This document shows positions 2,960 to 57,845 of a stretch of DNA of 64,000 bases, one piece after another. Origin of the DNA: a virus. A program made the translations under genes and the position numbers. The DNA is taken from positions 64,001-128,000 of IMG/VR virus record IMGVR_UViG_3300032180_000001. One strand, 5' to 3'. A model generated the notes under the pieces. The model saw nothing but the letters and a program-made list of their open reading frames with translations. It ran no database searches and had not been told where the DNA came from. Positions within the stretch are counted from its first letter, which is position 1; each line of letters opens with the position of its first letter.

Positions 2960-2963
2960 TGTT

Positions 2964-31600: not shown

Positions 31601-34600
31601 TATTCTCTAGCTTCTTCCGGGCATTCTTGTTGATCACGAACTCGCCGGGAGTCAGCAGCGCTGGCACTGTATCGCCACTGCCGCTACCGGGAACATGACC
31701 GCCCTTAGCGTAAGTAAATTCGAAGCTCAGGCCGAACGGAAGCGAAACGTGGACATGATGGCCGGTAAGCGCATTGTTAATAACATTGAAGAGAGTATTG
31801 CCGAGACCCGCGAGCCCGCTGATAGCCTCATCCCAGAGGTGCGCGGCCTCATGGCGCATCCCGTCGAAGATGACCGCGCCTTCCTGAAGGGCGGTGCTCA
31901 CCAGCCCGCTGAGCCCGCTGATCGCCTCGTCCCAGAGATGGGCACCTTCATGACGCATCCCGTCGAAGATGACCGCGCCTTCCTGGATAGCGTTGTTCAC
32001 CAGCCCGCTGAGCCCGCTGATCGCCTCGTCCCAGAGATGGGCACCTTCATGACGCATCCCGTCGAAGATGACCGCGCCTTCCTGGATAGCCCTGTTCACG
32101 AGGCCGTTGAGCCCGCTGATCGCGTCGTCCCAGAGATGTGCGCCCTCGTGCCGCGCTCCGTCGAAGACCACGGCCATCTCGTGCGGGAAAGAGTCACCGA
32201 TCGCGTGCACGAACCGGTTATGGAACCCCTGGGCGATGATGCTCCAGAAACCGTCGAACAGCTTCAGCGTGTTGGACAGGAATCCCTTCAGGTCGCTGCC
32301 CTTGCTCCCGACGAAGAAATCGTAGATCTTGTCGGCGACGTCGTGCTGGAATCCAGTGAAGACCCCAGCCCACGCCGTATGGAACACTCCGCCGATCGTT
32401 TTGCTTGAACTGCCCAGGGCTCCGACGACCGAGTTCGGGTCACGCGGACCGCCCTGCCCGGAATCTGACGTCCGGTGACCGGTAAAGAACCCTGTCACGG
32501 CATTGGCACCGCCAACAGAGATATTCGCCGCGCCCTGCCTAGTGAACAGCAGGTTGGCGATCGGCTGGAACCAGCCGGGGACCGTTTTGTTGTACGTTGC
32601 CAAGTTAGACGCCTGCGTTGGCTTGCCCACCACAGCATTGCTGACGCGACCGAGCACCTGACCGATGATCGCGGCGATAAGTGCAGTCCCGCCCGCGCCC
32701 CGCAGCAGCCCTTCCCCGCCCGCTCCTTCAGCTCCCCCGCCTGCCTTGCCGAACAAGCCCTTGAACCAGGTGCCAAACCGGGAGAAGAAGCCACCGGCCG
32801 CCAGCTCGCCGCCCTGCACGACATCGGATGTGCCGCGGGCACCGGGGATGCCAGTGGGCGGGCCGAACTTGCCCCCAGTCGCTGCTCCGGCTGTTTCTTC
32901 AGTCGCAACAGTCGCTCCGCCCGAAACCAGCGCTTCCCTGATCATAGCTGCGGCACTAGTGCCTCCTTCCTCGAACGCCGTTCTCATCAGGGCAGCTGCG
33001 TTTGAACCATCAACTTTCCCGCCGAGAAGACCACCGGTAAGCCTACCCAGAAGACTGCTACCGCTGAGAGCTTTGAAAAGGCTAGTAACACCAGTGAATT
33101 TCAGCAGTGCAATACCAGCAAGCGTGACCGCGATGCTCTCCAGAAATAGTTTGCCAGCCGTGTTCTTACTGATGTCCTTGACCCAGCCAGCGAAAAGGTT
33201 CAGCCCGTGCATAAGCGGAATGCCAACAACATCGATGATCTGCTTCAGGTTAAGCCGCAGGCTCTGGATCGTATCCGAAAAGCTGCTGGTGCCTGGTTTG
33301 GCGGCAGTCGTTGCCTTTCCCAGGTTCAGCGTGTAATTTGCCAGGTCATTAACGTACTTCGCGGCGTCCGGCCCGTAGATGCCTACTGATTTCAGGTCGG
33401 CGAGAAGCTGTACGCGATCCTTGCTGGCTGCGGCCTTATTGCCTTTTCCAAGGTCCGTAGTAAACTTAGCAAGAGCTGTCTGCACCTTACCGGTACTGCC
33501 AACGAGGGCCTGCTGCGCCGGAGTCAGGTCGGATTGCAAGGTATGCGCGAGCGCGGCGGCCTTGCCCGTCAGGTTGCTGTTGCCGATGGTGACCGCGTTC
33601 TGATTCCCCTGAAGTTTAGTCAGGCTGCCACCCATCTGGCTGATCCAGTTCGTCGCCTGCTGGAAGGTAGTTACGTACGGAGCGGCCCGTTGCACCCAGG
33701 AAACTACCTCAGCTTGCCAGGTCTTGTTGTTTCCGGCGGCCGTAACCATCGCCGCACCCGTATCAGCGATAGAACTCGTCAACTGTGGACCGGAGGCTCC
33801 TGCCTTCATGTTGGCGTCGACGAGAGAGTTAGCGTTGGTCAACAGCGACTGAAAATCAGTGTTCACTGTGTCGTAGGTGCTCGTGCCAGACGCAATGTCC
33901 GTGTTGAAAGTCTTCATGCTCTGGCCGAAGGTAGCCATCGACGTCTGGGTGCCAGTAACGATGCCGTACCAAGTGTCCCAGGCGCTCGTCAAGTTGTTAA
34001 TCGCTGTCACCTGGTCGTTGGCAGTTACCGACAGCACGTTCATGTCGCTGCCGACCATGCCCATCGTCTGGCCCATGTTCAGGTAACCGGTTACCAGGGA
34101 CGCGATCATTTGCATGGAGGTAGCCCACGCTTTGTTGTCCGCATTGGTGAAATCAGATACCTTGACTCCGGCTGTCTGTGCCAACTGCATTGCTGCGGGC
34201 AGACTGATTCCGTAGAGCTTCGAAATCTGAACAAGGCGCTCGGATTCAAGGGTGAAGTCCCCGAGGAGTTGCTGACGCGACTGGCCGAGCGTTCTCGCAT
34301 CAGCGCTGCCCGACGCTACTGCCTGCCGCCATGCGGCGGTAACATTCTTCAGCGAATTTTCTGTCGTGCTGAGCATAGTAATGGGTGTCGAATTAGCAAC
34401 GGCTGCAATTTGCGCGGATGCGTACTTCTGCATGGCATCCTGTGCCTTGACAGCCCAGACAACTACGGCAGCCAGTGCTGCTGCGATAAAGATGGCACCG
34501 CTTACCGCAGCCGGACCGAGTCCTTTCAGGACTTCACCAAATCTGGCGATCCGGCCACCCAGTGCTTCAAACATCGGTCCAACGACAGCCCAGCCTTTAG

Positions 34601-37600
34601 CCGCTGCGAGCCCGATGCCAAGACGTTCAACCAAATTCAAAAGGGCAGTAGCAGCAAGTCCGCTCCAGGCGTAGAGGGCATGCAGCCCGATTGCCCAGGC
34701 TGCCAGGGCGCCGCCAAACGGCGTATGGATAAAGTCAGCGACTACTCGAAACAGCTTGGTGACAGCGACGCCGATTCCTAGCATAATCTCAGCAATATGC
34801 GTTCGCTGGGTGATCCCGGCCAGAGCCCCCAGGAGCGCTCCAAGGTTAGCAAACGCTGTTGCCAGACCGGCGATGTCGCGCTGTCCCATCTTGATAAAGT
34901 TTGACAGGCCGGTACCAGAGCTGGCTTTATTCATGTCCACGGCAATGCGGGCGGCTGTCCTGTCTAGTGCCGTTCCGGTGTCCGTGATCAGCTTTTGCAT
35001 CACACCGCCACTCTTGCTGGCCATTGCGGTGAGCGCACTTCCGTATAGTTCGAATACCTGCGGGCGAACTTGATCCTGCAGCGCACTGAAAGAATTACCT
35101 AGTGAACTTACCTTTGTCGTAACGCCACCTGCTTGAGCGCCTAGCTTCTGAAGACTACCGCCTGCCGACACCACCATGAAATTCATCTGCGTGCCCATAG
35201 CCGTCGTCACAGTACCCAGATTTTTCACATATGTGGTAACCTGCGTAACCGCATCTTTGGCAGCAAGAGCAAATCCGCCGAGACCGAGCGCCAGCGTAGC
35301 CAGCGCCGGAATCCAGACGGCAAAAATTTCAACAGCCAGTTCCATGGCGATATGCCAGAGCTTGACGCTTTTCGCCGCACCATTAAATGCCTGAACCTGC
35401 TGCTGCATCCAGCCGAACCAGCCACCCGCACCCTTTGTGAGGAACGGGGTAATACCACCTCCGCCGGCTGCACCTGCCGCACCTGCTGCAGCGGCTGCAA
35501 GAACTCCACCCCCTCCACCGCCCTTGCCCCCGCCTGCACTCCCAGCCATAGTAGTGGCCATGACGGAACGCAATCTCCCGTACGCAGAGGCGAGATCTTT
35601 CACCCGGGCGATGTCTCCGGCGGTAGCCTTACTGAGGTCTATACTAGCTATATCTTTCAGTTCATCCTGAAGTCTTATCGCTTCGACAGCAATATCAGCT
35701 AGTACCCTCTTGGCGGAATCGCTGTCAACATGAGTTGCAAGGCTTATCAGGGTTTCCTTTATCTTCTTCGACTCAGCATCAAGCATAAATAGCTTATTCA
35801 TCGCCTCCGTAATGTCAATATTAGCGGCTGCGGTCTGCGGTGCAAGAAACTTCTGATATTCTTTAAGTGCAGCTTCCTGAAGTTTGCCGAGATCATTCCA
35901 GTCTTTCGTCATTTTCCGGGCTAGGTCATCCCAGGCTTTCCGCTGGTCCGCGTCAAACTTAAGATTATCCTTATTAGCGGACGCTTGCAGCTTACTGAGA
36001 TCATTCCAGTCTTTTGTCATTTTCCGGGCTAGGTCATCCCAGGTCTTCTGCTGATCCGCACCACCAGCAGCGCCACTCGCCGTATGCGCGGCTTTGACCC
36101 GCTTCAGTTCCTTTTCTGCCTGACTTAGCAGGGTTACCATCCGGATAACAGTGTCCGCCGCTGCCGCCTGGCTCATGAGGTCGACAGTCGACTGCTTCAT
36201 CTCATTCGATAGCTTGCTCTGCTCAATCCGGAGAATCATGGCCTGAGCAGCAGAATAACCGGCCTTCTCACCGAGATCAGACGTTGCAGCGTCAAGTTCC
36301 TTTAGTTTTGCTATCATATCAGCAGGAATAATAGTATTAAGCGGTTCGAATGCCTTTGCTGACTTTGCTGCCTGCGCTGCTGTTGCCGCCATAGTCGCGC
36401 CCAGTCCGCCGGTACTATCGGCTGCGGCATCTGCTGCCTTTTCCTGTACTTTTTCCGCAGCAGCAGCCAGGTACTCAGCCGCAGCCATCCCGCCTATCGC
36501 AGCGGTGGTGACAGTATATCCCTTATCAGCATAACCCCTAACGCCACCCTGACTTGACTCCCCGTATCCCTTGGCGTAAATAGCCCGGACGCGCTCAACC
36601 TCAGCAGCAGTCGTTTCAACTGTGTTCTTGAGCTTACCCCACTTACTAATTTGCAAGGTGATCGAAGTGTCCGCTGCTGCCGTTACCCGCTGATACTCCT
36701 GAAGGAAGCCTTTGCCCGTACCTACTTTCTCCGTCCAAGTGACTAGCTCCGCTGTTGCTTTCTCCATCGCCGGTGCCAGATTAACTTCCGGGGTGATCTT
36801 TGGCTTTTCCGTTGCGATTTTTTCGTCGAGCGCTGCTGCTTCCGCTAGTGCCGGTTTTTCATCAAGCTTCGGAGTAACAACCGGCGTATCAGCTTGATTG
36901 AAAGCAGCTTTCGCAGCCGTAGCAGCCTCTTTACTGCCATTCTCTATCGCCGTCCTGAACTCCCGGGTCGCGGCTTCCTTATTTACAGTTAGCGGCACCG
37001 CGACGGGCTTCATGACCTCCCCTACCCGGGCCTTAGCCGCCGTCATCATCATGTCCTGATACAGCTTATCGCGTGCTGCTTCCGACATCTTCGGCTCAAC
37101 AGGCACCTCGACTGGCTTACTGATCTTCGCGTCAAGCGCTGCCACCTCCGCCGTCGCCGGTCCCAGATCAACCTTCGGCTGAATGAATTCTTGCGACGAT
37201 ACTCGGTGCTTGTATTCCCCGCCGACAAACATGGCCTGCTGCCGCTGAAGATCTGTCAATGTCTGCTGGTTATGCTGCGGGACAAGGTTAACTTTCTGAT
37301 CCCGGTAAAGCTGGACTAGTGCTGCATCTAGATTCTTAACACCACTGAGCGCCGCCCGCAGATCCGTCAGGTTGATGTATCCTCCGGGCCTGTCCCCGCC
37401 TGCGGTTGCCATACTGCGGATCGTGGTCATAATCAGCTTGTCGAGCGCCATAACTTCCGTCATGGCCGGAGCCGTGTCCGCAGTAATCGACACCTCGGGC
37501 TTCTCTGCTTCTATAGCTTTGTCAAGCGCTGTGCATTCTGCCATGGCAGGAGCTGTGTTCAGTTCGGGGGTAACGACGGGCTTAGCTGCGGTAAGAGCAG

Positions 37601-40600
37601 CCTGAAATTTTTCCTGAACCTTGCGCATAAGAGCGGATGACTCGAAAGCTGCAAGGAACTCATTTATATCCGGAACAGCTTCGACAGGAACGGTTAGCTT
37701 AGTACTACTCCATTGTGCGCCAAGTGCCTGTGCGGCGGCAAGATTAGCATCCTCAACTTCTGTTCTATAGGTATCAAAAAATTTCTTCTGTGCCTTCGTC
37801 AGCGGAACCGTGATCGCCTCAGCAGTTGCGTCACCCGCACCCTTCATCGTTGTCCGGACCTTGTCGGCAAACCCGGTTAGCGCTGTCTCCGACTCTTCTA
37901 TGCTCGGCCCGAGATCAACCGGTATCTCAACAGGATTGGCCTTCACCTCCGCAACAGCCGCGGTAACAGCCGTTGCGACCTCCGGCATGACCTTCGACGT
38001 GTCCGCAGTGAACGGAACGCTTGCCGCCGCCGCCGCTGCCGCCTCTTGCGCGGCCTTCTTCAGCCTGGCTTTCATCACCATGTCGGCCTGCTTCTCCGAC
38101 AGCCCGGCCGCGATCAGCTCCGGTATCCCTCCCGCGACGGGCTTGTACTCTTCCCGCCCGACCGACATCTGCACGCTCTTCATAAAGTCGGCCATATTGG
38201 CTTTAACCGGGATTGTCCGGCTCTGAGTTATCCGCGCCATCTCCGCCTGGATCTCGGCTTCGCTGAACTTAGCCTTCATTTCGACTGGATGAGCTGCAAT
38301 CTCGGCATCCGCCACCGCGACTACCTTAGCTACCTCCGGGGTAATCACCGTTGTGTCTGTCTTGATTTGTTCCACAATCGGATTAGCCGCTGCCCAGGCG
38401 CTTGCTGCTTTTTTCGCTTTATCTAGATCATCATCCAGGTCTTCCAGGTAGTCAGCCGCAGGCCGAACAGATACCGTAGCAATAATCTTATAACCGGTTT
38501 TTGATGCATAGCTACCAGAACTTGGGTAGGCTGACGCATGAGGGGCATTATCTGCCGGATTTACGGGGGCGACCTGGTACGTATATCGACCAAGCAGGTT
38601 AGCCGCATTTGGTTTCTCATTAGCCCACGCCAGTCCGCTCCTACCGGGGTTAATGATATCTCCGACATCTAGCTTCGCATTAGTTGCGTGAAACAGGTCC
38701 TTTACCTCAGTGACGGCAGCAGTGGCCTCTGAGATAATTTTTTCTGTGTCAAGTTCTACCGGAATTTTAGTGTTCCTGTACTTAGCCTTTATGGCGGCTA
38801 GCTGCGCCTCAATCGGATCTTTATTTATATCTGGCGTGAACTCCATCTTCATCGACTTCATAATCTCGGCGACCGACTTGTCCGGCACCGGTACTGCGTT
38901 CTCCGGCTTATACAGGACCTGAGTAGCGCCCTTAAATACATCCTTCGAAGGGACGTCGAACGACCGGACAACGAAACCAAGCTCTTTCAGCTTAGGCAGC
39001 CATTCATCAAACCAGGTGTTCAACTGCTTCATGTCCTCGAATGCGCTGCGAGCACCTTCGCTGAAAAGCTTTATTGCCTTGTCTTCACTGACGATGTTTC
39101 CAAGAAGCGAGTCTTCCCAGACAGGAGGGTGCTCCCAATCTCGGGCGTTGTGCGTTGATGGTGCCGTCTCGGACACGCCAGGACTGCCCGCGTACGGCCC
39201 CCTGCCGGTCTCTGCATGCTCAACGCGGAAGATGCGAGTCATCTCCTGCTTTACTGCGGCTTCAGCAGCTTTGTCCATAACAGGCTCAACCGTAACCGGC
39301 AGGGCTTCAAGGTGAATATTCCGAACGCCCTCAATAATTTGATCTTTAAGTACCTTAAACGGCTGATTTCTCGGGAAGGTAAATTCATGTGCGTCGTCCG
39401 GGAGATCCCCCAGGGCTATACTCTGCCTATTCAGGGCCTTGACTCCCGGTCCTGCAGTAATTTTCATCAAGGTGGTGCCGAATGTTTTTGCTACATCCTC
39501 CGACACTGCGGCGCTAGTGTAGCCCTTATCCTGGATTATCTGACCGGTCTTACTCCCAACACTACCGAGAATCTCATCAGGCTTATTAACACCCCGAAAC
39601 AAAGTAACCTGCTGAGTAAAATCTGATACTTTATTAATCAGGGAGTCAATATCTGAGACAATACTAGCAACACCATTATCCTGAGTACTTCCAGCACCCC
39701 CGACTGATAGACCCCTTAGTTGATCCTGTATTGTCTTGAAAGACCACTCGTAATACCTTTTCATAGCAAACAGGTCGTCTTCAGTCGTGCTGCTAGGAGT
39801 CCCTTCGCTGGACTTAGCTAGTTTCATTCCTGACAAAGCCTGCTTCATCTCCCGGGAGGCATCCCTGAACTCCCCAGCAGACATCTGCACGCTTCGCATA
39901 AAGTCGGCCATTGACGATCCAGCGCTCGCGGTCGGGCCAGGCCCTGCAACCCCCGCTCCCGCAACCCCCGCTCCCTCAAGCCCAGAAGAATCAACCCGGA
40001 TCTTGACCGTCCGGTCCCGGGTGACGATCTTCAGCATCTCTTCGGCCACATCGATCGAACGGTCATCCAGGTCGGCCCGTATCCTCACCATGCGCTCGGC
40101 GGTCAGCGCGTCCAGTGCCGCCTGCGCCGCAGCCGAGTCCAGGACGACGTCGATCTCAAGGTCCTGTCCCGGCGGGAGTACGAGCTTTCCAACGTCAAAC
40201 GTCACCGGAATCTGGGTAGTAAGGCTGCGAAGCTCCGCCAGCTTCCGGTCCAGATCAGCCGTGTTGATATCGATGCTCAGGTAGTCGGACAGACCGGTTT
40301 GCGCGATCAGCTTCTTGATCAGCATGAGCTGGCTGCGGATCTTCGACTGAGGCACGTTAACATCAGCGAAGTCCGCCAGGCCAGACTGGGCTGCCAAAGT
40401 CTTCAGCTTCGCGAACGCCGCAGGAGCGCCCTCAACATTGACGCCGACATCAACCGTCCGGTCCGCCGTCAGGGCATTCAGCTCCGTTTTCGCCGCCGTC
40501 ACAGAACCAGGCTTCAGGTAAAACTCGACCGGAATATCCGCCACGACATCCTGAGTAACGGCGGCAACCTTAACCTGCAAGCCAATTGCGGTACCCAGAT

Positions 40601-41159
40601 TGAACTCAGCCGGAATATCCGCCTTAACGCCTTCGGTAACCGCATCAACCTGAGCCTGCAGTCCGCCCGAGCCACCGCGGACACCAAGATCGACAGGAAC
40701 GAGTGCGCTGGCGCCTTCCGCCATGGCATCAATCTTTACCTGAAACTCGGCCCGAGATGGCATGTTAAGGTCAACCGGTATCTTGGCTCCGATACCCGCA
40801 GTCAGCGTCTCAACCTGAGCCTTCATTCCTGTTTTAGTTCCAGTCAGGTCAACAGGTACCTTCGCCTTGATTCCTGCAGTCAGCGTCTCAACCTGAGTCT
40901 TTACGGCTGCCTTTGAAGGAAGCTTAAATTCGACTGGTATCTTTGCCTGAATCCCCGCGGTCAGCGTCTTAACCTGGCCTTGCAATTTAGTCTTAGTCCC
41001 AGTCAGCTCAATTGGAACCTTTACCTGCAAGTCATGATCAGTAAGAGCCAGCTTGTTAACTTCCCCCACCGCAGTTTTTACCTGCTTGGTAAGATCAGCA
41101 AAAAAACCGTCATCATTTGGTTTAATGTTAACGTAGGCCTCTCCCAAAAGACGGGCCAC
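25629..41159 (-). CDS. giant tape measure protein with ART-like, M23-like, tail-lysozyme and LysM domains
   Basis: 5176-aa ORF after chaperone genes; MARLLGEAYVNIKP start; Ala-rich helical core; 33-aa W/F repeats; three GGxxxGxGxGDxVPAxLxPGExV units. Confidence 0.9.
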   Translation of the reverse strand: MARLLGEAYVNIKPNDDGFFADLTKQVKTAVGEVNKLALTDHDLQVKVPIELTGTKTKLQGQVKTLTAGIQAKIPVEFKLPSKAAVKTQVETLTAGIKAKVPVDLTGTKTGMKAQVETLTAGIGAKIPVDLNMPSRAEFQVKIDAMAEGASALVPVDLGVRGGSGGLQAQVDAVTEGVKADIPAEFNLGTAIGLQVKVAAVTQDVVADIPVEFYLKPGSVTAAKTELNALTADRTVDVGVNVEGAPAAFAKLKTLAAQSGLADFADVNVPQSKIRSQLMLIKKLIAQTGLSDYLSIDINTADLDRKLAELRSLTTQIPVTFDVGKLVLPPGQDLEIDVVLDSAAAQAALDALTAERMVRIRADLDDRSIDVAEEMLKIVTRDRTVKIRVDSSGLEGAGVAGAGVAGPGPTASAGSSMADFMRSVQMSAGEFRDASREMKQALSGMKLAKSSEGTPSSTTEDDLFAMKRYYEWSFKTIQDQLRGLSVGGAGSTQDNGVASIVSDIDSLINKVSDFTQQVTLFRGVNKPDEILGSVGSKTGQIIQDKGYTSAAVSEDVAKTFGTTLMKITAGPGVKALNRQSIALGDLPDDAHEFTFPRNQPFKVLKDQIIEGVRNIHLEALPVTVEPVMDKAAEAAVKQEMTRIFRVEHAETGRGPYAGSPGVSETAPSTHNARDWEHPPVWEDSLLGNIVSEDKAIKLFSEGARSAFEDMKQLNTWFDEWLPKLKELGFVVRSFDVPSKDVFKGATQVLYKPENAVPVPDKSVAEIMKSMKMEFTPDINKDPIEAQLAAIKAKYRNTKIPVELDTEKIISEATAAVTEVKDLFHATNAKLDVGDIINPGRSGLAWANEKPNAANLLGRYTYQVAPVNPADNAPHASAYPSSGSYASKTGYKIIATVSVRPAADYLEDLDDDLDKAKKAASAWAAANPIVEQIKTDTTVITPEVAKVVAVADAEIAAHPVEMKAKFSEAEIQAEMARITQSRTIPVKANMADFMKSVQMSVGREEYKPVAGGIPELIAAGLSEKQADMVMKARLKKAAQEAAAAAAASVPFTADTSKVMPEVATAVTAAVAEVKANPVEIPVDLGPSIEESETALTGFADKVRTTMKGAGDATAEAITVPLTKAQKKFFDTYRTEVEDANLAAAQALGAQWSSTKLTVPVEAVPDINEFLAAFESSALMRKVQEKFQAALTAAKPVVTPELNTAPAMAECTALDKAIEAEKPEVSITADTAPAMTEVMALDKLIMTTIRSMATAGGDRPGGYINLTDLRAALSGVKNLDAALVQLYRDQKVNLVPQHNQQTLTDLQRQQAMFVGGEYKHRVSSQEFIQPKVDLGPATAEVAALDAKISKPVEVPVEPKMSEAARDKLYQDMMMTAAKARVGEVMKPVAVPLTVNKEAATREFRTAIENGSKEAATAAKAAFNQADTPVVTPKLDEKPALAEAAALDEKIATEKPKITPEVNLAPAMEKATAELVTWTEKVGTGKGFLQEYQRVTAAADTSITLQISKWGKLKNTVETTAAEVERVRAIYAKGYGESSQGGVRGYADKGYTVTTAAIGGMAAAEYLAAAAEKVQEKAADAAADSTGGLGATMAATAAQAAKSAKAFEPLNTIIPADMIAKLKELDAATSDLGEKAGYSAAQAMILRIEQSKLSNEMKQSTVDLMSQAAAADTVIRMVTLLSQAEKELKRVKAAHTASGAAGGADQQKTWDDLARKMTKDWNDLSKLQASANKDNLKFDADQRKAWDDLARKMTKDWNDLGKLQEAALKEYQKFLAPQTAAANIDITEAMNKLFMLDAESKKIKETLISLATHVDSDSAKRVLADIAVEAIRLQDELKDIASIDLSKATAGDIARVKDLASAYGRLRSVMATTMAGSAGGGKGGGGGGVLAAAAAGAAGAAGGGGITPFLTKGAGGWFGWMQQQVQAFNGAAKSVKLWHIAMELAVEIFAVWIPALATLALGLGGFALAAKDAVTQVTTYVKNLGTVTTAMGTQMNFMVVSAGGSLQKLGAQAGGVTTKVSSLGNSFSALQDQVRPQVFELYGSALTAMASKSGGVMQKLITDTGTALDRTAARIAVDMNKASSGTGLSNFIKMGQRDIAGLATAFANLGALLGALAGITQRTHIAEIMLGIGVAVTKLFRVVADFIHTPFGGALAAWAIGLHALYAWSGLAATALLNLVERLGIGLAAAKGWAVVGPMFEALGGRIARFGEVLKGLGPAAVSGAIFIAAALAAVVVWAVKAQDAMQKYASAQIAAVANSTPITMLSTTENSLKNVTAAWRQAVASGSADARTLGQSRQQLLGDFTLESERLVQISKLYGISLPAAMQLAQTAGVKVSDFTNADNKAWATSMQMIASLVTGYLNMGQTMGMVGSDMNVLSVTANDQVTAINNLTSAWDTWYGIVTGTQTSMATFGQSMKTFNTDIASGTSTYDTVNTDFQSLLTNANSLVDANMKAGASGPQLTSSIADTGAAMVTAAGNNKTWQAEVVSWVQRAAPYVTTFQQATNWISQMGGSLTKLQGNQNAVTIGNSNLTGKAAALAHTLQSDLTPAQQALVGSTGKVQTALAKFTTDLGKGNKAAASKDRVQLLADLKSVGIYGPDAAKYVNDLANYTLNLGKATTAAKPGTSSFSDTIQSLRLNLKQIIDVVGIPLMHGLNLFAGWVKDISKNTAGKLFLESIAVTLAGIALLKFTGVTSLFKALSGSSLLGRLTGGLLGGKVDGSNAAALMRTAFEEGGTSAAAMIREALVSGGATVATEETAGAATGGKFGPPTGIPGARGTSDVVQGGELAAGGFFSRFGTWFKGLFGKAGGGAEGAGGEGLLRGAGGTALIAAIIGQVLGRVSNAVVGKPTQASNLATYNKTVPGWFQPIANLLFTRQGAANISVGGANAVTGFFTGHRTSDSGQGGPRDPNSVVGALGSSSKTIGGVFHTAWAGVFTGFQHDVADKIYDFFVGSKGSDLKGFLSNTLKLFDGFWSIIAQGFHNRFVHAIGDSFPHEMAVVFDGARHEGAHLWDDAISGLNGLVNRAIQEGAVIFDGMRHEGAHLWDEAISGLSGLVNNAIQEGAVIFDGMRHEGAHLWDEAISGLSGLVSTALQEGAVIFDGMRHEAAHLWDEAISGLAGLGNTLFNVINNALTGHHVHVSLPFGLSFEFTYAKGGHVPGSGSGDTVPALLTPGEFVINKNARKKLENKFGPDVLHKMNKFAAGGSVFDQFGAPGVTVPAGTYSATPASIAAAQKKAGVSPAKAAKAVSPAATGASGTPLVTGASILAGIYAQNKLTAATNKLTALMAQGPATTAQKKAAQSGLTGANASAAAAQLNLNKLLASGTATSAQLAAAHKTLNNAQAGAVAQMTNLNKVYGQHKATQAQLLAAANAQAAAQNAQNRLNNAGVSAVNTAANKAGAALTGAATTAAGTTTGAATTAAGITTGAATTAAATITTATTPKPAPPKPNQPGHVTRGGYVPPTDSRGRPAVDQPPHPGFTSPAGYVPARGPKGDMYSTPPGGGRSPVNLAAGYADITKPGTTGTPPDIGRALVTYTRDLNNNASAQKLVADRTALANSLVKDGLSTQAQATASVSKYTGVIQDQQHSQAQAVEYTKDMVATTPKAKAVIDNLTQAVASNNKTAIGTNQRKLIKILTDAHVPINQATASVKDLTGKIHAVPPSVKLSSAIARAGLTGLLQGLKLNQHKINEVNALKIHPGSDPRDVNKMLGLIGLNSTQIADVNKLKIKPGSDPGQVDALLHHLGLNSNQIAIINSTLIKPQVQQPPPIKPTVQQPPPLRIPITLVPDTMHLGKLGAAGLNALMYGLPGHAKGGHIGGTGHGDTVPAMLTPGEFVLTKTAAAHLKKMYGPGFLDGLNKYATGGSVGGGGAGHPAHAITLTSTGGGSAKHAELGDGGTGKLGKSVKKNLNDALGFVRGQFSNGLSRVFTKDLPASLDKSAASTRDKFAKPVQKTLTGHLGWQQNTFGTAMDKLYTKALPAVYDNSAQAASSRYDKPVRTTMAQHLNWQQGTFGTGISNLYTQAIPGVYNASAKTSSTQYDTPVRGIMTGHLAWQKSPFLSTMTTIYTSQVPQAFATGVSNVGGAWGRLTSVIKPPVNTSIGGLNNLVTGINSIGSWASVSGSIPKIATMARGGRLDGFGGGDSVPALLEPGEAVVDKMTVRKHASALKAMGVPGFAKGGVVGGGYVNPIPSSAGSSRIDQGVDFTGAGPVLAIGNGTILRTSEGGWGPPAGPSPGTFFTYRLNDGPKAGSVVYLAEGVPLVPGLKVGGSLTAGQVIGVMNGSSIETGFADPSGTHPLTQGGGLTAGGAEFWSFLKSLGTKQTPTNMGGSVAASGGVSTVPTGPDPSALGKLSAVGTDLLLQTSAGNAKAVVDLLKGTGNPAKGTGTRNLAGILSGMPPKLAQEAVAHIAKAGASALAGGVGTGPAGGATGSEMANGRELYNYLLTNLFGGQKFAAAGATASIWGESNWNPFAAGTGGRGLIGWTPAGTISDAAFKGGMKTQLPAIIEFVNSSGDQGVISQMKSTTSVLEAANLWGKGVERYGINDVHSTGLSLAASFMKSKGGLVYNVKAGDTLSGIAARFLGNAGDWAEIWDANRSVIGGNPNLLTVGERLGIPGMSGGHGGHQRNRKPGQKPKPKTPKQTLAGMEAALAADQRAETRYGNKMNYDLAHGLTGAYSADSVKAQNALFAAATEQANIKAYKAWMALTPLQKAQQTVQRDDLALTHAKDAVAAALANVESLGGTLSRFKGSKTSPAYRLELKNYQKAQAALFHAGQVEKGDQAAYNAAAKQVAQYQQNPGNDRYLRGLLAKLTRDQAAAAKAAAGMANDSKHHDDAGYFRDSKLYKGAEFAIGKDQLAIKHREAVLAAIPEQERAALVRQISSEEKKIAAAEKAANIAYGVAETDQRILGHDRKGSKKWKTDNWHYQRALRAYLNAGNRVTGDQGVLRGLEQKLGALPGGAGLQLPTANTPVLQLVRALTTNPMLKYLISGPGSVTPLGWAMQPELGDLMVANVFNPASWVGKSATQNGGLYAGMQANYDAAQLAVQQFLMDKGQTKALKLAGKATGIHGIDEHGRRFDQGGLVQPGLNLINNQTGAPEMLTPSRSGWISPRGHGDSRSSRPVSPDGMTAYERESLNEMRALRASMDANTAAVNRQGPAFSQALTGSAHRAASRGNYGGW
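31800..32170 (-). repeat. 99-bp (33-aa) tandem repeat, about 4 copies, inside the tape measure gene
   Basis: EGAVIFDGMRHEGAHLWDEAISGLSGLVNNAIQ-type units. Confidence 0.85.
35880..36060 (-). repeat. 108-bp (36-aa) duplication inside the tape measure gene
   Basis: WDDLARKMTKDWNDL occurs twice. Confidence 0.85.
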
Positions 41160-42785: not shown

Positions 42786-43534
42786 TTACGTACCGGAGAT
42801 GCCCGTGGTGGGATAGCGCATTATCGCGCTTGCTGCGCTGAACGTGCTCTTCATGGAGACCGCTGCCGCAACGCCGCCGGCGACGGCGTAGTCGGGAAGG
42901 ATCTTGCCGAAGAAGTACTGGCCTGGCCCGGCTCCCTGCACGCCGACCGTGGACGGGTAGAGGTAAAAGTTCCGGGGCTGGCCGTCGGTCGCCGCGACGT
43001 AGGTCTGCGCAGTGGCAGTGTCGTAGAAGCCGGTAAAGTCACCGGATGCGTCCGGCAGGCCGGCCACCCAGATCAAGTTAGAGTCTCCCATGGTGGTGAC
43101 GTCTACCTTGGCGACGGTGAAGTTGAGGCTCCAGTCTGACAGAAACGCCATCGGGCTTGCTGAGTCGGTCGGGTTTACGCCAATGTAAGCGATCGTTCTG
43201 TTACCTCTCGTCCTTTTTACAGGGCGAGCGGGCTGGTCATTTCTGCCAGCCTCTGCATGTCTCCATGCAGTCCGGACTATACCTTCACCCACAAGGGGTG
43301 CCACGTACCTAGTCTCTGAACCATCCCGTCGAGACCTTTCAGTTCAGGCGGGCTCGGCTGCTGATTACCCCTGCTAATCTCTTTTTGAACCATCGCGCTC
43401 GCGTTTTCACGCCACGCTGTGGTGCGATCAGGTGACTCGGGCGTCCCAGCAATTCTCGCAGTTTGCACTGAGTGATTGCTCTCTCAGGCGGCCAGTCGAC
43501 CGTTGCGTCCATGAATTCTCGAGATGGTACTCAT
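42786..43534 (-). CDS. major tail tube protein, two exons (43534-43499 and 43193-42786)
   Basis: Spliced product MSTISRIHGRNG|IAYIGVNP...WSLNF...VDVTTMGD...GLPDASGDFTGFYD (147 aa) resembles actinophage tail tube proteins; AAGGAG upstream. Confidence 0.8.
43194..43498 (-). ncRNA. group I self-splicing intron (305 nt, no ORF)
   Basis: P AATTGCTGGG (43454-43445), Q AATCAGCAG (43366-43358), R TCAGAGACTA (43319-43310), S AAGGTATAGTC (43285-43275). P1 has U-G at the splice site, the intron ends in G, P9 has a GAGA tetraloop, and removal restores the reading frame. Confidence 0.92.
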
Positions 43535-43825
43535 CTCCTTCTGTATCGGCGCCTTGACGCCATACGGGAGAGACCGGCTCCAAGCGCATCGTGCCCGTGG
43601 CCGCGATCTAGTGCTGCTCCTGCCATAGTAACTGTCTCGGAGGCGGATTGAAAGCTGCGCCGGATGCACTTACCAATCTGGCGGGAGATTACTTCTCGGA
43701 GGACTTCCAATCTCCTTTACAGAAGGGACCGAGTGGATGGCTAGATGACACTCTCCCTGTTGTGATAGGATTTTCTTATCTACAATCGCGCCAAAAGCTA
43801 GTCAACCCCAAAGAGGTGCCTGATT

Positions 43826-44941
43826 ATGAAAGAGAAAATCTGCATCGATTGTGGCAGAACTTACACACACGGCGGACGGGGGCTGTGCCCGAACGACTAC
43901 GCAAAAAGGAAGCGCTACGGAACACTTCCGCCCCTGAAAACAAGAGGCCCCGACGCTCAGTGCAAAGCTCCCGAAGGATGCACGAACATGGTAGGGCGCT
44001 CCGGCGCCAGAGGGCTGTGCCCTAAGCACTACCAGCGACTTGTCAAGTCAGCTGGAGGGCTGGAGCAACCGGTGCGAACGGCTCCACTAGCGGCGAGGTT
44101 TCGCGCGAAAATAAGTACCGAGCCATGCCCGTGCGGTTGCGATTGCGAACTGTGGACGGGAGGGATTCAGCCTAAAACCGGGTACGGTAATTTCTCGATC
44201 AAGAACAAGACTTATCTAGCACATCGCGTCGCGTGGGAGCTGGAGAAAGGCGAGATACCGGACGATTTCGATATCGATCACGTCCAGGAGCGCGGCTGCC
44301 GTCATAGGCATTGTGTTAAGATTACGCACCTGGAACCTGTTCCGACGGTGCTGAACAATCGGCGTATACCAATGACGGAGCAGCGAAGAGACGGACTTTC
44401 GGAAGCAGGAAAGAGGGGATCTGCCATCCGCTGGGCAAGAGTCCGGGCCGGTGAGGCTGAAGTCGATCAGGCAATCTGCTCCCGGGTTCTCGCTTTCGTT
44501 CTTGCCCATCCCGATGGTAGTCGTGCGCGGCAGATAGCAGAGGCGCTGGATATGTCTATCCACAACGCAAGGCAAGGTCTTACCCGTCTCGCTAAACGCA
44601 AGATGATTCTCGGTAATGGTTCCGGGCTTTACCAGCCGCTACCTGCTGAAGAATGCTGGCGTCCTGTGCGAGGCTATGCCGCGTTTTATGAAATCTCTGA
44701 CCGGGGGAACGTCTCTGCCCTGGCCCGGCCGCGAACGCACGGCGGACTGCTGATTCCCCAGCTCAACTCCGCAGGCTTCCGGGTTGTTCGGCTGTCTAAG
44801 TACGGTCAAGTGACAACATGGACTGTAGGACGACTCGTGCTCGAAACGTTCTGCTGGCCACCTCCGCATCCGAAGGCGAGAGCGAAGCATGGCCTAAACG
44901 GTAAGCTAGATGACGCACTGTCAAATCTTCACTGGAGTTAA
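43826..44941 (+). CDS. chimeric HNH endonuclease (Zn fingers, HNH, HTH, NUMOD4, truncated second HNH)
   Basis: CELWTG...GYG...LAHRVAWE...DIDH...CRHRHCV...HLEPV, followed by WRPVRGYAAFYEISDRGNV. Confidence 0.8.
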   Translation: MKEKICIDCGRTYTHGGRGLCPNDYAKRKRYGTLPPLKTRGPDAQCKAPEGCTNMVGRSGARGLCPKHYQRLVKSAGGLEQPVRTAPLAARFRAKISTEPCPCGCDCELWTGGIQPKTGYGNFSIKNKTYLAHRVAWELEKGEIPDDFDIDHVQERGCRHRHCVKITHLEPVPTVLNNRRIPMTEQRRDGLSEAGKRGSAIRWARVRAGEAEVDQAICSRVLAFVLAHPDGSRARQIAEALDMSIHNARQGLTRLAKRKMILGNGSGLYQPLPAEECWRPVRGYAAFYEISDRGNVSALARPRTHGGLLIPQLNSAGFRVVRLSKYGQVTTWTVGRLVLETFCWPPPHPKARAKHGLNGKLDDALSNLHWS

Positions 44942-44949
44942 ATAAAACC

Positions 44950-45186
44950 ATGACTGACTACAGGGATGCTCACCGCGACGCGATGGCCGCCGTGCAATGC
45001 GAGGTCAACGACGACACCGAGGGCGTAATGGCGGTGCTGAACAACGCGAGCAACCTGGCTGCCACGGCACAGATCCTCGCCATCTGGCAGGCAGGCTTCC
45101 TCCGGTACATAGCCTCAGAAAGCGGTGCCCCCGTGCAGGAAGTGCTCGCCGCCTGGCGAAGGAACGAGGAGACGAGGAGCACCTGA
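44950..45186 (+). CDS. hypothetical protein
   Basis: Helical 78-aa ORF after the HNH gene. Confidence 0.55.
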   Translation: MTDYRDAHRDAMAAVQCEVNDDTEGVMAVLNNASNLAATAQILAIWQAGFLRYIASESGAPVQEVLAAWRRNEETRST

Positions 45187-45517
45187 TCCTGGCCGGAAAG
45201 CGATGGCGCAACGAACCGGTGCCTGGTAAATTTCTTGCGTCGAGCCCCCGCACCTCCGGTTCCCGAAGCCTCGCTAGGCAGTGGAACGGGAGGAATCATG
45301 GTTCAGGCGGTACCAGAAGGTCGTGAAAGCGGGTACGGATCGCACGTCAGAGAAGCCGCGGAGACAAGGGCAGGGCGGCCCTGCCGGCTAGGGATGAGGC
45401 CGGCACCTTCCTGATCGGGATCCCTGGTTGCGTGCCCTCCTACTCTGTTATACTCTAAGCGTAGATAGAAACGAAGGAAGCAGAGTCACGGCCGACCGCT
45501 ACACGGGGAGTAACCAG

Positions 45518-46162
45518 ATGAGCGCAAATGTCGACGGAGGTGGTAAAAAATTTACCTGCTCGCGCTGCCATCGAGACGATCTAACGGAAGACGACTTCCC
45601 GATCGACTTGCGTCGAACATCAGGTCGATACCCCTGGTGCAAGCCTTGCAAGGCTGCATACATGCGAGAGAAATATCCTGAACGATACTCTGATGAGCAT
45701 CCAGGCCCACCTCTGTCTCCTGTCTGCACAGGATGCGGTGGACCACGGGGGGCTAAGCGTGCCCGTTGCAATGAATGTGAAGCAAAATACCAACGAGAAT
45801 ACCGCCATGGTGTAGTAATTAAGGAGTCGCCACTGACACTTGAACAACGAACTGAAAGACGTAAACAGAGTCAACGAGAGTCAAAAAGGCGCACAGAACT
45901 TCGACGCTACGGAACAACCCCAGAAGAATGGGATCGAGTACTTGTAGCTCAAGGAAATTGTTGCGCTATCTGTCGTACGAATACGCCTACAGGCGCTGGA
46001 GCTAAATACGGGCACTGGCATACAGATCACGACCACGCAACAGGAAAACTGCGCGGACTACTATGTTCATCATGCAATCTTCTCCTTGGACATGCTGAAG
46101 ATAATCCCGCACGACTGCGAGCAGCAGCAAATTACCTAGAAAAATACCTAGAAAAGGATTAA
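45518..46162 (+). CDS. endonuclease VII-domain protein
   Basis: LRRYGTT.EEW...AQGNCCAIC...TDHDHATGKLRGLLCSSCNLLLG...LRAAANYL; N-terminal Zn fingers; TGTTATACT upstream. Confidence 0.85.
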   Translation: MSANVDGGGKKFTCSRCHRDDLTEDDFPIDLRRTSGRYPWCKPCKAAYMREKYPERYSDEHPGPPLSPVCTGCGGPRGAKRARCNECEAKYQREYRHGVVIKESPLTLEQRTERRKQSQRESKRRTELRRYGTTPEEWDRVLVAQGNCCAICRTNTPTGAGAKYGHWHTDHDHATGKLRGLLCSSCNLLLGHAEDNPARLRAAANYLEKYLEKD

Positions 46163-46165
46163 ATT

Positions 46166-47236
46166 ATGCCTGCTGGTGAAATTCAAGAAATGTTCAGTGT
46201 CCGAGAGACGCCGTGGCACCGTCAGGGTCATGTTCTCGACGACTACCCGCAGACCTTCGAGGAGGCCCGCAAGCTTGCCGGGCTCGACTGGGATCCGATT
46301 GCTGTCCCCGTCTACCAGGGGCTGGACAAGGACAGGCTTCGTGAACGGATCGTTGAGGCCCTTAGAGAGGAGAGGCCGCTTGAGCAAGTCGATGCCCTTC
46401 TCGCAGCCTGCGATCAGTCACTCATCACCGACAAGGAGTTCCGACGCATCGCCCGCAGCGACGACGTGCCCAAGTCGCTCTCCTATCAGCGCGACAGTTA
46501 CAACATCATCCCGAACAGCGTCTTCGGCGAGATCATCGACTCGATCACCGGCGCCGCGCCAGGCAAGATCCGGCTGGAAACAGGTGGCTGCCTGTCCGGG
46601 GGCCGCCAGGTCTGGATACTCGCCCGCCTCGACGAGCCCATCGAGTTCAAGGGCGACAAGTCGCTGACCTTCCCGCACCTGGGTATCACCAGTCGTAACG
46701 ACGGCAAGGCATCCTGCGCCGCCCGACTCACTACCGTCAGAATCGTCTGCTGGAACACCTTCAGCGCTGCGGAAGCCGAGGGTGAGCGCACCGGCGCGGT
46801 GTACAGCTTCAGCCATCGCGGTAACTGGCGTGACCGGATCGGCGAGGCTCGCGAGGCACTGATGTTCGCCCGGCGTGAAGCTGCCGAATACGTCGAGACG
46901 ATGACCGAACTGCTCGGCATCAAGGTCACCTCGGTCCAGGAGCAGCTGTTCCTGCAGGCGTTCATCCCGTCACCGCCCGAAGGCGTCATCTCCGACCGGG
47001 TAGCAAAGAACATCGACGAGGCACGGGCAGCCGTTGCGGGCTTCCTGAACAGCCCGACGGTGGAAGGTGCCGGCGTCCGCGGTACTGCCTACGGTCTGGT
47101 GCAGGCGGCAGGTGAGTACCTCGATCACGCACGCCGGGCGAACAGTTGGGAAACGAAGATGGGGAGGTCGATTTTGCGGCAAGAACCCTTGAAAGCAAAG
47201 GCTGCTCAGCTGGCCCGGCAGGCGGCGCTGGCGTGA
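46166..47236 (+). CDS. DUF932 / TIGR03299-type phage-plasmid protein
   Basis: RETPWHRQG...AGLDW...ETGGCLSGGRQVWILA...TTVRIVCWNT...H.GN...GTAYGLVQAAGEYLDH. Confidence 0.85.
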   Translation: MPAGEIQEMFSVRETPWHRQGHVLDDYPQTFEEARKLAGLDWDPIAVPVYQGLDKDRLRERIVEALREERPLEQVDALLAACDQSLITDKEFRRIARSDDVPKSLSYQRDSYNIIPNSVFGEIIDSITGAAPGKIRLETGGCLSGGRQVWILARLDEPIEFKGDKSLTFPHLGITSRNDGKASCAARLTTVRIVCWNTFSAAEAEGERTGAVYSFSHRGNWRDRIGEAREALMFARREAAEYVETMTELLGIKVTSVQEQLFLQAFIPSPPEGVISDRVAKNIDEARAAVAGFLNSPTVEGAGVRGTAYGLVQAAGEYLDHARRANSWETKMGRSILRQEPLKAKAAQLARQAALA

Positions 47237-47430
47237 CGAACACACCCGGTCCGATCCTGCTCGAAACCTCTTCCGCTGACGTTAGCCTCAGTCCGGTCAC
47301 CCCAGAATCGTGCGATCGCTGCGGCCCAGCCGTCCGGGCGCTCTGGCAGGTCTCGGCCGGAACAGGAGTGCTGACCTTCTGCGGGTCGTGCTACCGGAGG
47401 TTCCGGAAGATAGCAGCGAGCCGGGAATGA
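47233..47430 (+). CDS. small Zn-ribbon protein
   Basis: CDRCG...LTFCGSC; GTGA overlap. Confidence 0.6.
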   Translation: MTNTPGPILLETSSADVSLSPVTPESCDRCGPAVRALWQVSAGTGVLTFCGSCYRRFRKIAASRE

Positions 47431-47521
47431 TCTGTTTCGTCCCTCGGTTACACCACCTCGTACCTCAGCACACCCCAGGCGAGACTCATCAGGAGTCGCC
47501 GAGAGAGCCGAGGAGAACAAG

Positions 47522-47995
47522 GTGCTATCAGCACTCGCAGCAATTTTCATCACAGTCCAGCCCGGAGACACGCTGTCCGGCATCGCCGTCAGTCACGGTG
47601 TGTCACTTGCCGCGGTGGAGGCGGCCAACCCCCAGATCGAGAACTTCAACCTGATCTACGCGGGCAACCGGGTCGCCATTCCGAAAGGGGGCAGCTACCA
47701 GGCGCAGCCTCAGCCGACCTACCGCCAGCCATCGCAGGCCCCGTCAAACAGTTACGGCGTTGCGGGCACAGGCGGCGGTTCCCTGTCGGATGTCCCGGGC
47801 GTCCCGTCGTCGTTCGCAGCATGCGTGGCCCTGCGAGAGTCGGGTGACGGGTCGGGCAGCTCGAACATCTACGGGATCATCCCTGGGAGCGGATACAGCG
47901 TCGCAGGTGACTCGCTAGCGCAGCAGAAGGCGGTGTTCGCCCAGATCTATCAGAGGTATGGAGTGACAGCCTGGCAGCCCTGGGACGGATGTTAG
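47522..47995 (+). CDS. LysM plus Rpf/transglycosylase-like protein
   Basis: VQPGDTLSGIA...ANPQIENFNLIYAG LysM; C-terminal CVALRESG...IYG...QQKAVF..IY...G..AW; AGGAG SD. Confidence 0.75.
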   Translation: MLSALAAIFITVQPGDTLSGIAVSHGVSLAAVEAANPQIENFNLIYAGNRVAIPKGGSYQAQPQPTYRQPSQAPSNSYGVAGTGGGSLSDVPGVPSSFAACVALRESGDGSGSSNIYGIIPGSGYSVAGDSLAQQKAVFAQIYQRYGVTAWQPWDGC

Positions 47996-56041: not shown

Positions 56042-56854
56042 TCAGTGTAGACGTTCGAGCAGCTCGTCGCGGTAGTTCGTCACCACAAAGTCAAGCAGAG
56101 CCCCTCGGTAGTTCGCCACCACAAAGCTCAGCAGATCATCGACGCGCTGCCCCTTCCAGGACACCCATAGTTCTAGATTGTCAGGCCGATTATCAGTCTT
56201 GATGCCATTCTTGTGATGAACCTCCTCTTCTCGAAGTAGCGGACGCCCTAGCTGTTCCTCCATGACTAGACGGTGTTCGAATCGATCCCTGCCATTAACC
56301 TTAATTTTTCGATAACCATTTTCTGTAACCCAGCCGCGATCATCGTGATAGTAGGCCGGGCCATCCATCGGGCTGCCTGCCTTGCGTCGTCGCTCATGCC
56401 GAGGGCAGAGACCGCTTGCCGAACTTATCTTGGGCTGGTCGCATCCTTCCCAGACGCACTCCGGAACGGGTTCGTCTTTCCGGCGATGCGGTCGGATTGG
56501 CGCGTTCATATCTGAATGCAGAATGTACTTTCGATGATAATGCACCGAGCAGTATCCACGTGAGCTATGCGGACGATCACAGCCAGGGTGACTACACAGC
56601 TTCTTTTCAGCAAACGGTACGTCCATGTTCCGGCCATTACGAACCCGCTGATAGTGTGCCGAACAGTATCCGCCCGCATGATGTGGCCGATCACAACCAG
56701 GATGATTGCAGTTTCGTTGACTGCCCCTGAACGGTATGTTCATGTCCCGACCCGTGAGCTGACGCTGGTAGTGCGCGTTGCACAGACCTGTTTTCTTATA
56801 AGAACGAGGCCGGTCGCAGCCAGGCCACGTGCAGGTAGACTGATCTTGTGTCAT
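56042..56854 (-). CDS. HNH endonuclease with four N-terminal CxxxGC...C..HY Zn-finger repeats
   Basis: EHRLVME..LGRPL...EEVHHKNGIKTDNRPDNLELW; TAAAAT 6 nt before ATG. Confidence 0.9.
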   Translation of the reverse strand: MTQDQSTCTWPGCDRPRSYKKTGLCNAHYQRQLTGRDMNIPFRGSQRNCNHPGCDRPHHAGGYCSAHYQRVRNGRNMDVPFAEKKLCSHPGCDRPHSSRGYCSVHYHRKYILHSDMNAPIRPHRRKDEPVPECVWEGCDQPKISSASGLCPRHERRRKAGSPMDGPAYYHDDRGWVTENGYRKIKVNGRDRFEHRLVMEEQLGRPLLREEEVHHKNGIKTDNRPDNLELWVSWKGQRVDDLLSFVVANYRGALLDFVVTNYRDELLERLH

Positions 56855-56903: not shown

Positions 56904-57845
56904 TCACACGCCGACTTTCAGGCGCTGATCGGTATACGGGCGAAGCATTTCGATGATCCACGGATTGGCCTGAATTCTCACGACACCAAGGTCTCCTGCC
57001 CCAGCAATGCCAAAAGGCGCATCCTTGCGCTTAAACCATTCGGTGGCCAGCTCCAGGCAGGCCTGCGATACTGTCGGCGGAACAGATGGCCATCCCCAGG
57101 TGCCGGTAATCTGCACTCGGTCCATGTGCGCGAACGGGTAAATATACGGGAACCACTTACCGTTCTGCAGTACCTGTACCTTCTTGAACGGGCGCTGGAC
57201 TCCGAGAGCGTTCAGGTTGTAGCGATCTTTGCCAAACTTGAGCTGGTAGTCCACGTTCTGCGTCCACGCCTCAGCGAACACGCCATTCCCGGTCTGATCG
57301 ACGTTAAGAGAGGTGATGCTGACCAGAGGGTCAATCGTCAGTTCCCGGATGTCGTAGGGTACGAACGTCCGCGTCTCGGTAATCCGGTAAAAATGGGTGG
57401 CGCAATGCTCATTGATCCACGTACTCGCCGCCTGGATGGCCTGCTGCATGGCGAAATCGTCGGAACCGTCTTCAACGCTGATCCGGTCTCGCAGCTCCTC
57501 CAGTCCGCAGTACCAGTTGCCGAGTTGGGGCGGGAACACGCGCCAGGTGCCTGGTTGAACGTCGGAAACAGCTCCGGTACCGATCCAGATGTAGCTCCAC
57601 AGCCCGTCGATTCCGGTGATGGCCGGGGAACAGGGCACGATAAGCTCATAATGCCCAACCAGTGGCTTGGTGATGTCTGCGGGAGAGGCACCGTTGTACG
57701 TATGAACAACCTGATTTCCTGATGGATCAGTGACAACACAGGAAACAGTTGTCGGATCGGTGTCGACGAGTGGGTCGCCCGCCTGAAACTCGTTGCTGAG
57801 CAGGGCTATCTCGTTCTGGTTGTCATAGTAGATAGTGCTGGTCAT
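56904..57845 (-). CDS. head-to-tail adaptor (gp6/gp15-like) with N-terminal extension
   Basis: YCGLEELRDRI...AIQAASTWINEHC...F...TWGWPSVPPTVSQACLELA...FKRKDAPFGIAG. Confidence 0.8.
   Translation of the reverse strand: MTSTIYYDNQNEIALLSNEFQAGDPLVDTDPTTVSCVVTDPSGNQVVHTYNGASPADITKPLVGHYELIVPCSPAITGIDGLWSYIWIGTGAVSDVQPGTWRVFPPQLGNWYCGLEELRDRISVEDGSDDFAMQQAIQAASTWINEHCATHFYRITETRTFVPYDIRELTIDPLVSITSLNVDQTGNGVFAEAWTQNVDYQLKFGKDRYNLNALGVQRPFKKVQVLQNGKWFPYIYPFAHMDRVQITGTWGWPSVPPTVSQACLELATEWFKRKDAPFGIAGAGDLGVVRIQANPWIIEMLRPYTDQRLKVGV

Follow-up and report, generated by a model that had tools for sequence, protein, structure and literature searches.

A group I intron without an open reading frame in the tail-tube gene of an uncultured soil phage, with close relatives at four sites of the same gene

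The tail-tube gene of an uncultured soil phage is interrupted on the minus strand, at positions 43498-43194, by a group I intron of 305 nt that contains no ORF. We put at about 0.88 the probability that this segment is a functional, ORF-less group I ribozyme, which would have to leave the late mRNA in order to yield the only tail-tube protein of the phage. Positions are those of the window, that is, the whole stretch of 64,000 nt that was analysed, which belongs to a virus record of 184,980 bp (~185 kb; CheckV completeness 99%). The intron is an ordinary kind of element, genuine and correctly delimited. The novelty lies in the occurrence of its close relatives at four sites of the tube gene, each with a guide that matches its site.

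Structure and splice junction of the intron

The elements of the interrupted gene and of the intron are the following.

43499-43534, minus strand: exon 1 of the major tail tube gene, MSTISRIHGRNG, ending in the U of the U.G splice pair
43502-43498 with 43493-43489, minus strand: P1, CGGUC with GGCCG, with the U.G pair at the 5' splice site
43489-43493, minus strand: internal guide GGCCG, the 3' strand of P1, pairing with exon CGGU and the first intron base
43484-43486, minus strand: in-frame TGA at the P1/P2 boundary, ending translation after four intron codons
43487-43480 with 43475-43468, minus strand: P2, a helix closed by a GCAA loop
43461-43457 with 43305-43301, minus strand: P3
UUGCUGG with UCAGCAG, minus strand: P4
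43395-43417, minus strand: P5b hairpin, capped by a GAAA tetraloop, within the extended P5-P5a-P5b arm, which has an A-rich bulge
43314-43310 with 43279-43275, minus strand: P7, GACUA with UAGUC; the region 43275-43314 encloses P3' and P8 and forms the pseudoknotted catalytic core
43300-43286, minus strand: P8, CACCC with GGGUG, a compact 5-bp hairpin
43270-43253, minus strand: P9, CUGCAUG-GAGA-CAUGCAG
3' of P9, minus strand: P9.1 and P9.2, followed by the terminal G
43194, minus strand: terminal G (omega G)
42786-43193, minus strand: exon 2 of the major tail tube gene, 135 codons and a stop (42786-42788)

A preliminary description of this DNA had listed a full group I core, all elements of which are indeed present in their places on the minus strand, and P3, P5/5a/5b, P6, P9.1, and P9.2 can be added to that list. 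The loops of P2, P5b, and P9 are of the GNRA type, and P3 and P7 form the expected pseudoknot. An Infernal-type search with a group I model, which the same description had named as a check, gives the same answer: the Rfam group I model RF00028 is matched at 43508-43253 (minus strand) over its whole length (model positions 1-253), with an E value of 1.7e-10 and 52.5 bits, only 2.5 bits above the gathering score of 50. This is the sole Rfam match in the window and the sole group I match in the entire 184,980-bp record. The fold of the single sequence is moderately better than that of its shuffles (z = -2.4), and P10, in which the guide would pair with the first bases of exon 2, is weak, with at most one to three pairs by eye.

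The introns of phage Twort belong to subgroup IA2 and carry P7.1/P7.2. In the window intron P7.1/P7.2 are absent, P3' (43305-43301) running directly into P8 (43300-43286), and the intron is therefore unlike the IA2 introns of T4 and Twort. Its core looks IC-like by P2, the linear P5-P5a-P5b arm with its GAAA loop, P9.1, P9.2, and the sequence of J8/7. All six frames of the 305-nt intron are closed or short and none holds an open frame of endonuclease length; being too small for an endonuclease, the intron could not move alone. Among the sequencing runs listed, the locus was found in the probable source soil sample only, and in no RNA run.

Exon 1 reads, from 43534 downwards, ATG AGT ACC ATC TCG AGA ATT CAT GGA CGC AAC GGT, and exon 2 opens with ATC GCT TAC ATT GGC. 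The in-frame joining of the two exons, 43499 to 43193, to give HGRNG-IAYIG had been proposed from the outset and agrees with the uninterrupted homologs. Exon 2 has 801 homologs in the protein collection, most of them uninterrupted and 144 aa long; these read MSRIHGRNGIAY[IV]GVNP, with the N-terminus M/V-SRIHGRNGIAY, a motif that exon 1 plus exon 2 reproduce exactly, and [IVL]HG[RK]NG is continuous in the 78 uninterrupted alleles fetched. The junction is fixed because the uninterrupted homologs read SRIHGRNGIAY, and U43499/G43194 is the only pair that combines canonical U...G ends with the conserved protein; the use of any other G nearby would shift the frame. From the reading of the joined exons, the spliced tube protein would begin (M)STISRIHGRNGIAY, and the peptide that spans the junction would be IHGR/NGIAYIGVNPTDSASPMAFLSDWSLNFTVAK.

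By established group I intron chemistry, splicing would begin with the pairing of the guide GGCCG to CGGU at the end of exon 1, which would form P1 and place its U.G pair at the splice site. Free guanosine, bound by P7, would then attack after U43499, the terminal G43194 would take over the G site, and the exons would be joined to encode HGRNG-IAYIG. A ribosome that entered unspliced RNA would be stopped at the TGA four codons into the intron; the early stop, after the sense codons R L A A, had been noticed in the preliminary description and is present as described. Thus, a ribosome halted at this TGA would not run through and unfold the catalytic core.

The ribosome binding site of exon 1, GGAG, directly abuts the ATG without spacing, so that translation may in fact begin at the ATC three codons further in, and exon 1 would therefore comprise 9-12 codons. 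Upstream of the tube gene (43535-43600, minus strand) lies a conserved GGAGCCGG motif followed by a hairpin, the 5' arm of which, UCUCC, can pair with GGAGA of the ribosome binding site, as is also the case in loci L003 and L017.

The interrupted tail-tube gene

The host gene had been named as the tail tube, and this assignment is sustained by PHROG matches, by fold, and by position before the tape measure gene. Exon 2 matches no Pfam family and only weakly the PHROG major tail protein families (E 1.7e-5), while 78 of 93 diverse relatives match PHROG major tail protein (phrog_10528), with best E values of 1e-14 to 1e-15. An AlphaFold model of a homolog that is 84% identical (P0003), built with an alignment of the 93 diverse relatives, reached a pLDDT of 88.5, and its Foldseek comparison with solved siphophage tail tubes gave TM values of 0.7-0.8. 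The best-described matches are the tail tube of siphophage R4C (TM 0.74/0.81), lambda gpV, SPP1, and the GTA particle, and the model also matches tube-fold chains of the 80alpha baseplate model. A profile search of PDB sequences with the tube protein returned nothing. The modelled structure supports a siphophage tail-tube fold for the host protein.

The tube gene lies upstream of three small ORFs and of a 5176-aa tape measure ORF. This last is a single open frame (25629-41159, minus strand) that stands where a tape measure gene is expected and exceeds the usual length several-fold. Some remote relatives of the tube protein (P0125, P0133, P0128, and P0131) carry C-terminal extensions that bring them to 450-1160 aa in total. 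Only one copy of the tube gene is found in the genome, which is 99% complete by CheckV, and the phage would therefore depend on splicing to build its tail, that is, on a ribozyme for its most abundant tail protein.

The collection of cultured phages gave no match to the locus by blastn or to exon 2 by tblastn, and the neighbouring 495-aa protein has two weak matches only, both in Gordonia phages. With a G+C content of 59%, these weak Gordonia phage matches, and the kinship of the intron to a mycobacteriophage intron, it is plausible that the virus is an actinophage.

Intron family, neighbouring nucleases, and possible routes of mobility

A 21-nt core word from P4/P6 matches 29 IMG/VR contigs, and a family profile built for nhmmer finds one to four full copies per locus, plus split copies; the window intron matches this profile with E 8.6e-79. 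In an alignment of 29 family members with a consensus fold of 75 pairs, compensatory changes on both sides occur in 53 pairs, vs 19-25 when the partners are slid by 1-3 columns, and standard pairs fill 96.9% of the cells, vs 32-41% with slid partners; none of 500 shuffles reached the observed values. P5b shows compensatory changes in five of its eight pairs around an invariant GAAA loop, and the G-C pair that closes P7 is invariant in all 29 sequences. The window intron obeys the family covariation, with all core helices intact.

The hosts of the family introns are major head protein genes (PHROGs phrog_1357, phrog_267, and phrog_13692, the last with no assigned function). The window intron is a member of a prolific family that resides mostly in the major capsid genes of uncultured, high-GC soil phages and sometimes in the tube gene. 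The family is large and largely undescribed. Since many capsid genes in metagenomic phage contigs are split by it, protein catalogues for such phages are systematically truncated. In L029, L018, L012, L008, and L025, loci of related uncultured phages, two to four family copies interrupt the major capsid gene (phrog_1357); that of L029 (2766-4580) holds three introns, at 2766-3064, 3319-3618, and 4269-4580. In L015 (5819-6791, minus strand), three introns lie nearly back-to-back in a phrog_13692 gene (6791-6486, 6476-6172, and 6128-5819), and the intervening exons would be only ~9 and 43 nt.

A sense-strand ORF of 330-350 aa (cut by the contig end in one case) is present in four family members, where it is inserted after profile position ~222 in the P8/P9 region. 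These ORFs have DUF559 (Vsr/EDxHD-like) and NUMOD3/HTH domains, and the DUF559 nuclease is a candidate for the family's own homing endonuclease. The introns that bear them are as follows.

L016, 3935-4942: DUF559 ORF-bearing intron
L028, 2038-3036, minus strand: DUF559 ORF-bearing intron
L015, 8134-9195, minus strand: DUF559 ORF-bearing intron
L026, 3386-3982: DUF559 ORF-bearing intron

Among tube loci fetched without regard to introns, 4 of 80 carry an intron, which represent two distinct alleles; when loci found via the intron are added, the count of independent tube alleles with an intron rises to six, distributed over four sites that all lie within ~110 nt in the first ~40 codons of the gene.

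Site A, HG/RNG: 5' exon end CAC GGU, guide GGCCG; found in L003/L004, L017, and L070/71/73
Site B, NG/IAY: 5' exon end AAC GGU, guide GGCCG; found in the window only
Site C, LTD/W: 5' exon end CGAU, guide GUCG; found in L102
Site D, inside the Val codon of AKV-D: 5' exon end AGGU, guide GCCU; found in L010

At every site the junction restores the conserved protein and the guide matches the exon; all six tube-gene introns end in G and have the guide as well as the U.G pair. One relative at the neighbouring site scores 68.8 bits on RF00028. A scan of JGI metagenome contigs for site-B exon codons plus guide found no second site-B case; the one pattern match was a chance occurrence and not an intron. 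Homologs of 121 aa were also considered as intron alleles, and those of L001 and L005 were rejected as uninterrupted genes with missed TTG starts, the intron being present in L003 and L004 only. The site-A tube gene of L017 (3640-3700) contains an extra 7 nt, TTAGCTC, between the PMAFL and SDW codons, next to site C; this insertion shifts the frame and could be explained as a scar, as an assembly error, or as a sign of a pseudogene.

Two genes for nucleases or candidate nucleases lie in the neighbourhood of the tube gene.

43826-44941, plus strand: free-standing HNH endonuclease gene, 371 aa, intact (Pfam, PHROGs)
45428-46162, plus strand: second free-standing candidate nuclease, with an Endonuclease VII domain (Pfam PF02945, E 4e-21), in the same plus-strand island

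The HNH gene is divergent from the tube gene, 291 bp from its start, and encodes Cys-rich N-terminal repeats, HNH_3, a winged-helix-like stretch, and NUMOD4. The EndoVII gene lies 1.9 kb from the interrupted gene. Upstream of the tube gene, EndoVII-like remnants are found in L003, L069, and L103. The slot upstream of the tube gene is thus a hot spot for free-standing nucleases, a pattern that would fit collaborative homing. The plus-strand island (43826-47995) is placed between the head-tail connector genes and the tail-tube gene and holds the HNH endonuclease, a small ORF, the EndoVII-domain protein, DUF932, and a LysM/transglycosylase-like gene; DUF932 homologs accompany HNH in the same place in L039/L040. 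A further free-standing HNH gene (56042-56854, minus strand) is located in the head-tail connector block, adjoining the head-tail adaptor gene (56904-57845).

The reading of the segment as a functional intron has as its rival a dead intron with a pseudogene, or a protein started inside the intron or exon 2, which we consider very improbable. The gene call on record for the contig (P0002), a 172-aa ORF that begins at GTG 43304 in the intron, would speak for it, as would an Rfam score near threshold. However, the start at 43304 had already been regarded as an artefact in the preliminary description, and rightly so: the 172-aa ORF is exon 2 read back into the intron, a mis-call of the tube gene, with no ribosome binding site before the GTG, which sits inside P3'. 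Moreover, the nearly invariant N-terminal RIHGRNG would be lost in a protein started there, the core helices are intact and follow the family covariation, and the gene in question is the sole tube gene of a near-complete genome.

As for the way in which a functional ribozyme came to this gene, the HNH endonuclease of 43826 could, in co-infection, cut intron-less tube alleles near their 5' end, and repair would copy the HNH gene together with the intron, which, by splitting the target, would protect its own genome. Such collaborative homing, which the preliminary description had suggested, is a possible but doubtful route. The nuclease gene is intact, close to the tube start, and equipped with DNA-binding modules (NUMOD4 and the winged-helix-like stretch); all four intron sites are at the gene end nearest the nuclease slot; and precedents are known in the S-PM2 psbA intron with F-CphI and in T4 mobE with I-TevIII (PMC3984707, PMC2790892, PMC6083498). 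HNH/NUMOD4 relatives are present upstream, on the opposite strand, in six of six independent intron alleles vs 19 of 55 unique empty ones, a co-occurrence with a naive one-sided Fisher p = 0.003, although a phylogeny-aware test rests on the one well-supported independent pair offered by the tube tree and cannot reach significance. The nearest empty allele has no HNH relative for three or four of the six intron alleles and has one in two. Nevertheless, many alleles that lack the intron also have an HNH homolog in this slot, so that the nuclease can do without the intron, and at most intron-bearing loci only the NUMOD4 end (~100 aa; in L003, a 103-aa ORF) is recognisable. The genome has ~11 HNH_3 matches, and an HNH neighbour by chance would therefore not be rare. 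Furthermore, the ORF-bearing members of the family encode DUF559 nucleases and not HNH. ACGGT is found in unique empty alleles at site A in 6 of 47 and at site B in 4 of 47, with no clear difference by HNH state.

No endonuclease would be needed if the intron had come from a neighbouring site of the tube gene by reverse splicing into the mRNA, or by another guide-dependent route, followed by reverse transcription and recombination, an unlikely course that nevertheless agrees with several features of the tube introns. On the tree of intron cores, a single group with moderate support (81/78) takes in five of the six, which represent sites A, B, C, and D, and the tube label requires 2 changes vs 5.6 in shuffles, none of 500 shuffles being as low. 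The nearest relative of the window intron is that at site D (84% identity), followed by site A; sites A and B, separated by 9 nt, have both target (ACGGU) and guide (GGCCG) in common, and the guides of C and D are retuned to CGAU and AGGU. The lengths involved agree with the 4-6 nt that reverse splicing is described as requiring (PMC3984707). Against this stands the fact that an identical pattern would arise from ectopic homing at a nuclease cut, and the match of guide and exon does not discriminate between routes, since splicing needs matching guides whatever the route of insertion. To our knowledge, no reverse transcriptase is known in this phage system. That one intron lineage was transposed among four sites within ~110 nt of the tube gene, guided by its 4-5 nt guide, can likewise be offered as a tentative suggestion at most. 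It is still less likely that the intron is a relic of classical homing, which arrived with an endonuclease ORF of the DUF559/EDxHD type and later lost it; in its favour are the four ORF-bearing family members, with their insertions in the P8/P9 region, and the standard life cycle, in which a fixed intron goes on to lose its endonuclease (PMC3984707), but the six tube-gene introns show neither an ORF nor a visible remnant of one, the P8 hairpin of the window is compact, with 5 bp, and no DUF559 match over threshold is found in the genome of the window phage.

Should the four sites have been reached by reverse splicing, or by guide-dependent capture at nuclease breaks, the tube gene would provide a tractable, protein-coding model for this mobility pathway. 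Moreover, as four guide-matched sites lie beside a recurrent nuclease slot, the competing nuclease-assisted and guide-directed models for the arrival of ORF-less introns at new sites could be tested on one small natural allele set.

Comparison with known systems

The preliminary description had called an intron in an abundant structural gene unusual, which was overstated, given Twort orf142, the capsid and tail introns of cluster J, and the members of the same family in capsid genes. In Twort, the gene orf142, which holds three group I introns, has since been identified as encoding the tail tube (PMC11878797), and splicing of introns from capsid and tail genes occurs in LittleE, BAKA, and Optimus, mycobacteriophages of cluster J (PMC3706429). 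Because of these cases, neither an intron in a tube gene nor one in a high-GC phage's structural gene is new in kind. Together with Twort and cluster J, the window intron indicates that the range of group I introns extends beyond DNA-metabolism genes. Like the window gene, orf142 is a highly expressed late structural gene for the tail tube with small group I introns. However, Twort is a low-GC myovirus (Herelleviridae) with three introns in one gene, whereas the relatives of the window phage have one intron per gene at four alternative sites.

The intron of BAKA and Optimus is located in a minor tail gene and is an ORF-less element of 265 nt, that of LittleE is in the capsid gene, and splicing of the BAKA intron has been proven in vivo by RT-PCR (PMC3706429). 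The family described here is related to the BAKA intron, which matches the family profile with E 2e-14 (nhmmer) over its last 90 nt, P7'-P9-P9.1-P9.2-GUAACA, and has the same GGCCGCC guide region. In both cases a large, high-GC siphophage has a tail gene interrupted by a group I intron without an ORF, and many free-standing HNH genes are found around it. They differ in that the P4-P6 half of the BAKA intron cannot be aligned to the family, in that BAKA has only 28.6 bits on Rfam, and in the host gene, a minor tail protein in BAKA and the tube in the window. No DNA or protein similarity was detected between the window phage and BAKA or the cluster J phages.

Precedents for collaborative homing are the psbA intron of S-PM2 with the free-standing F-CphI and the DNA polymerase intron of T3/PhiI (PMC3984707, PMC6083498), and T4 mobE mobilises the defunct I-TevIII intron in trans (PMC2790892). 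F-CphI of cyanophage S-PM2 uses an EndoVII catalytic motif (PMC6083498). The S-PM2, T3, and T4 pairs, like the window, join an ORF-less intron to a free-standing endonuclease gene that adjoins the interrupted gene. Unlike in those systems, the nuclease slot of the window is also filled in many intron-less alleles, and cleavage of the empty site is a candidate activity only.

The guide-directed mobility pathway has so far had only circumstantial support, from rDNA introns, where related group I introns at different sites make the case for reverse splicing (PMC3984707). As in rDNA, close relatives of the window intron occupy several sites of one gene with site-matched guides; unlike in rDNA, the gene is protein-coding and belongs to a phage, and its four sites lie within ~110 nt, two of them with the same 5-nt target and guide.
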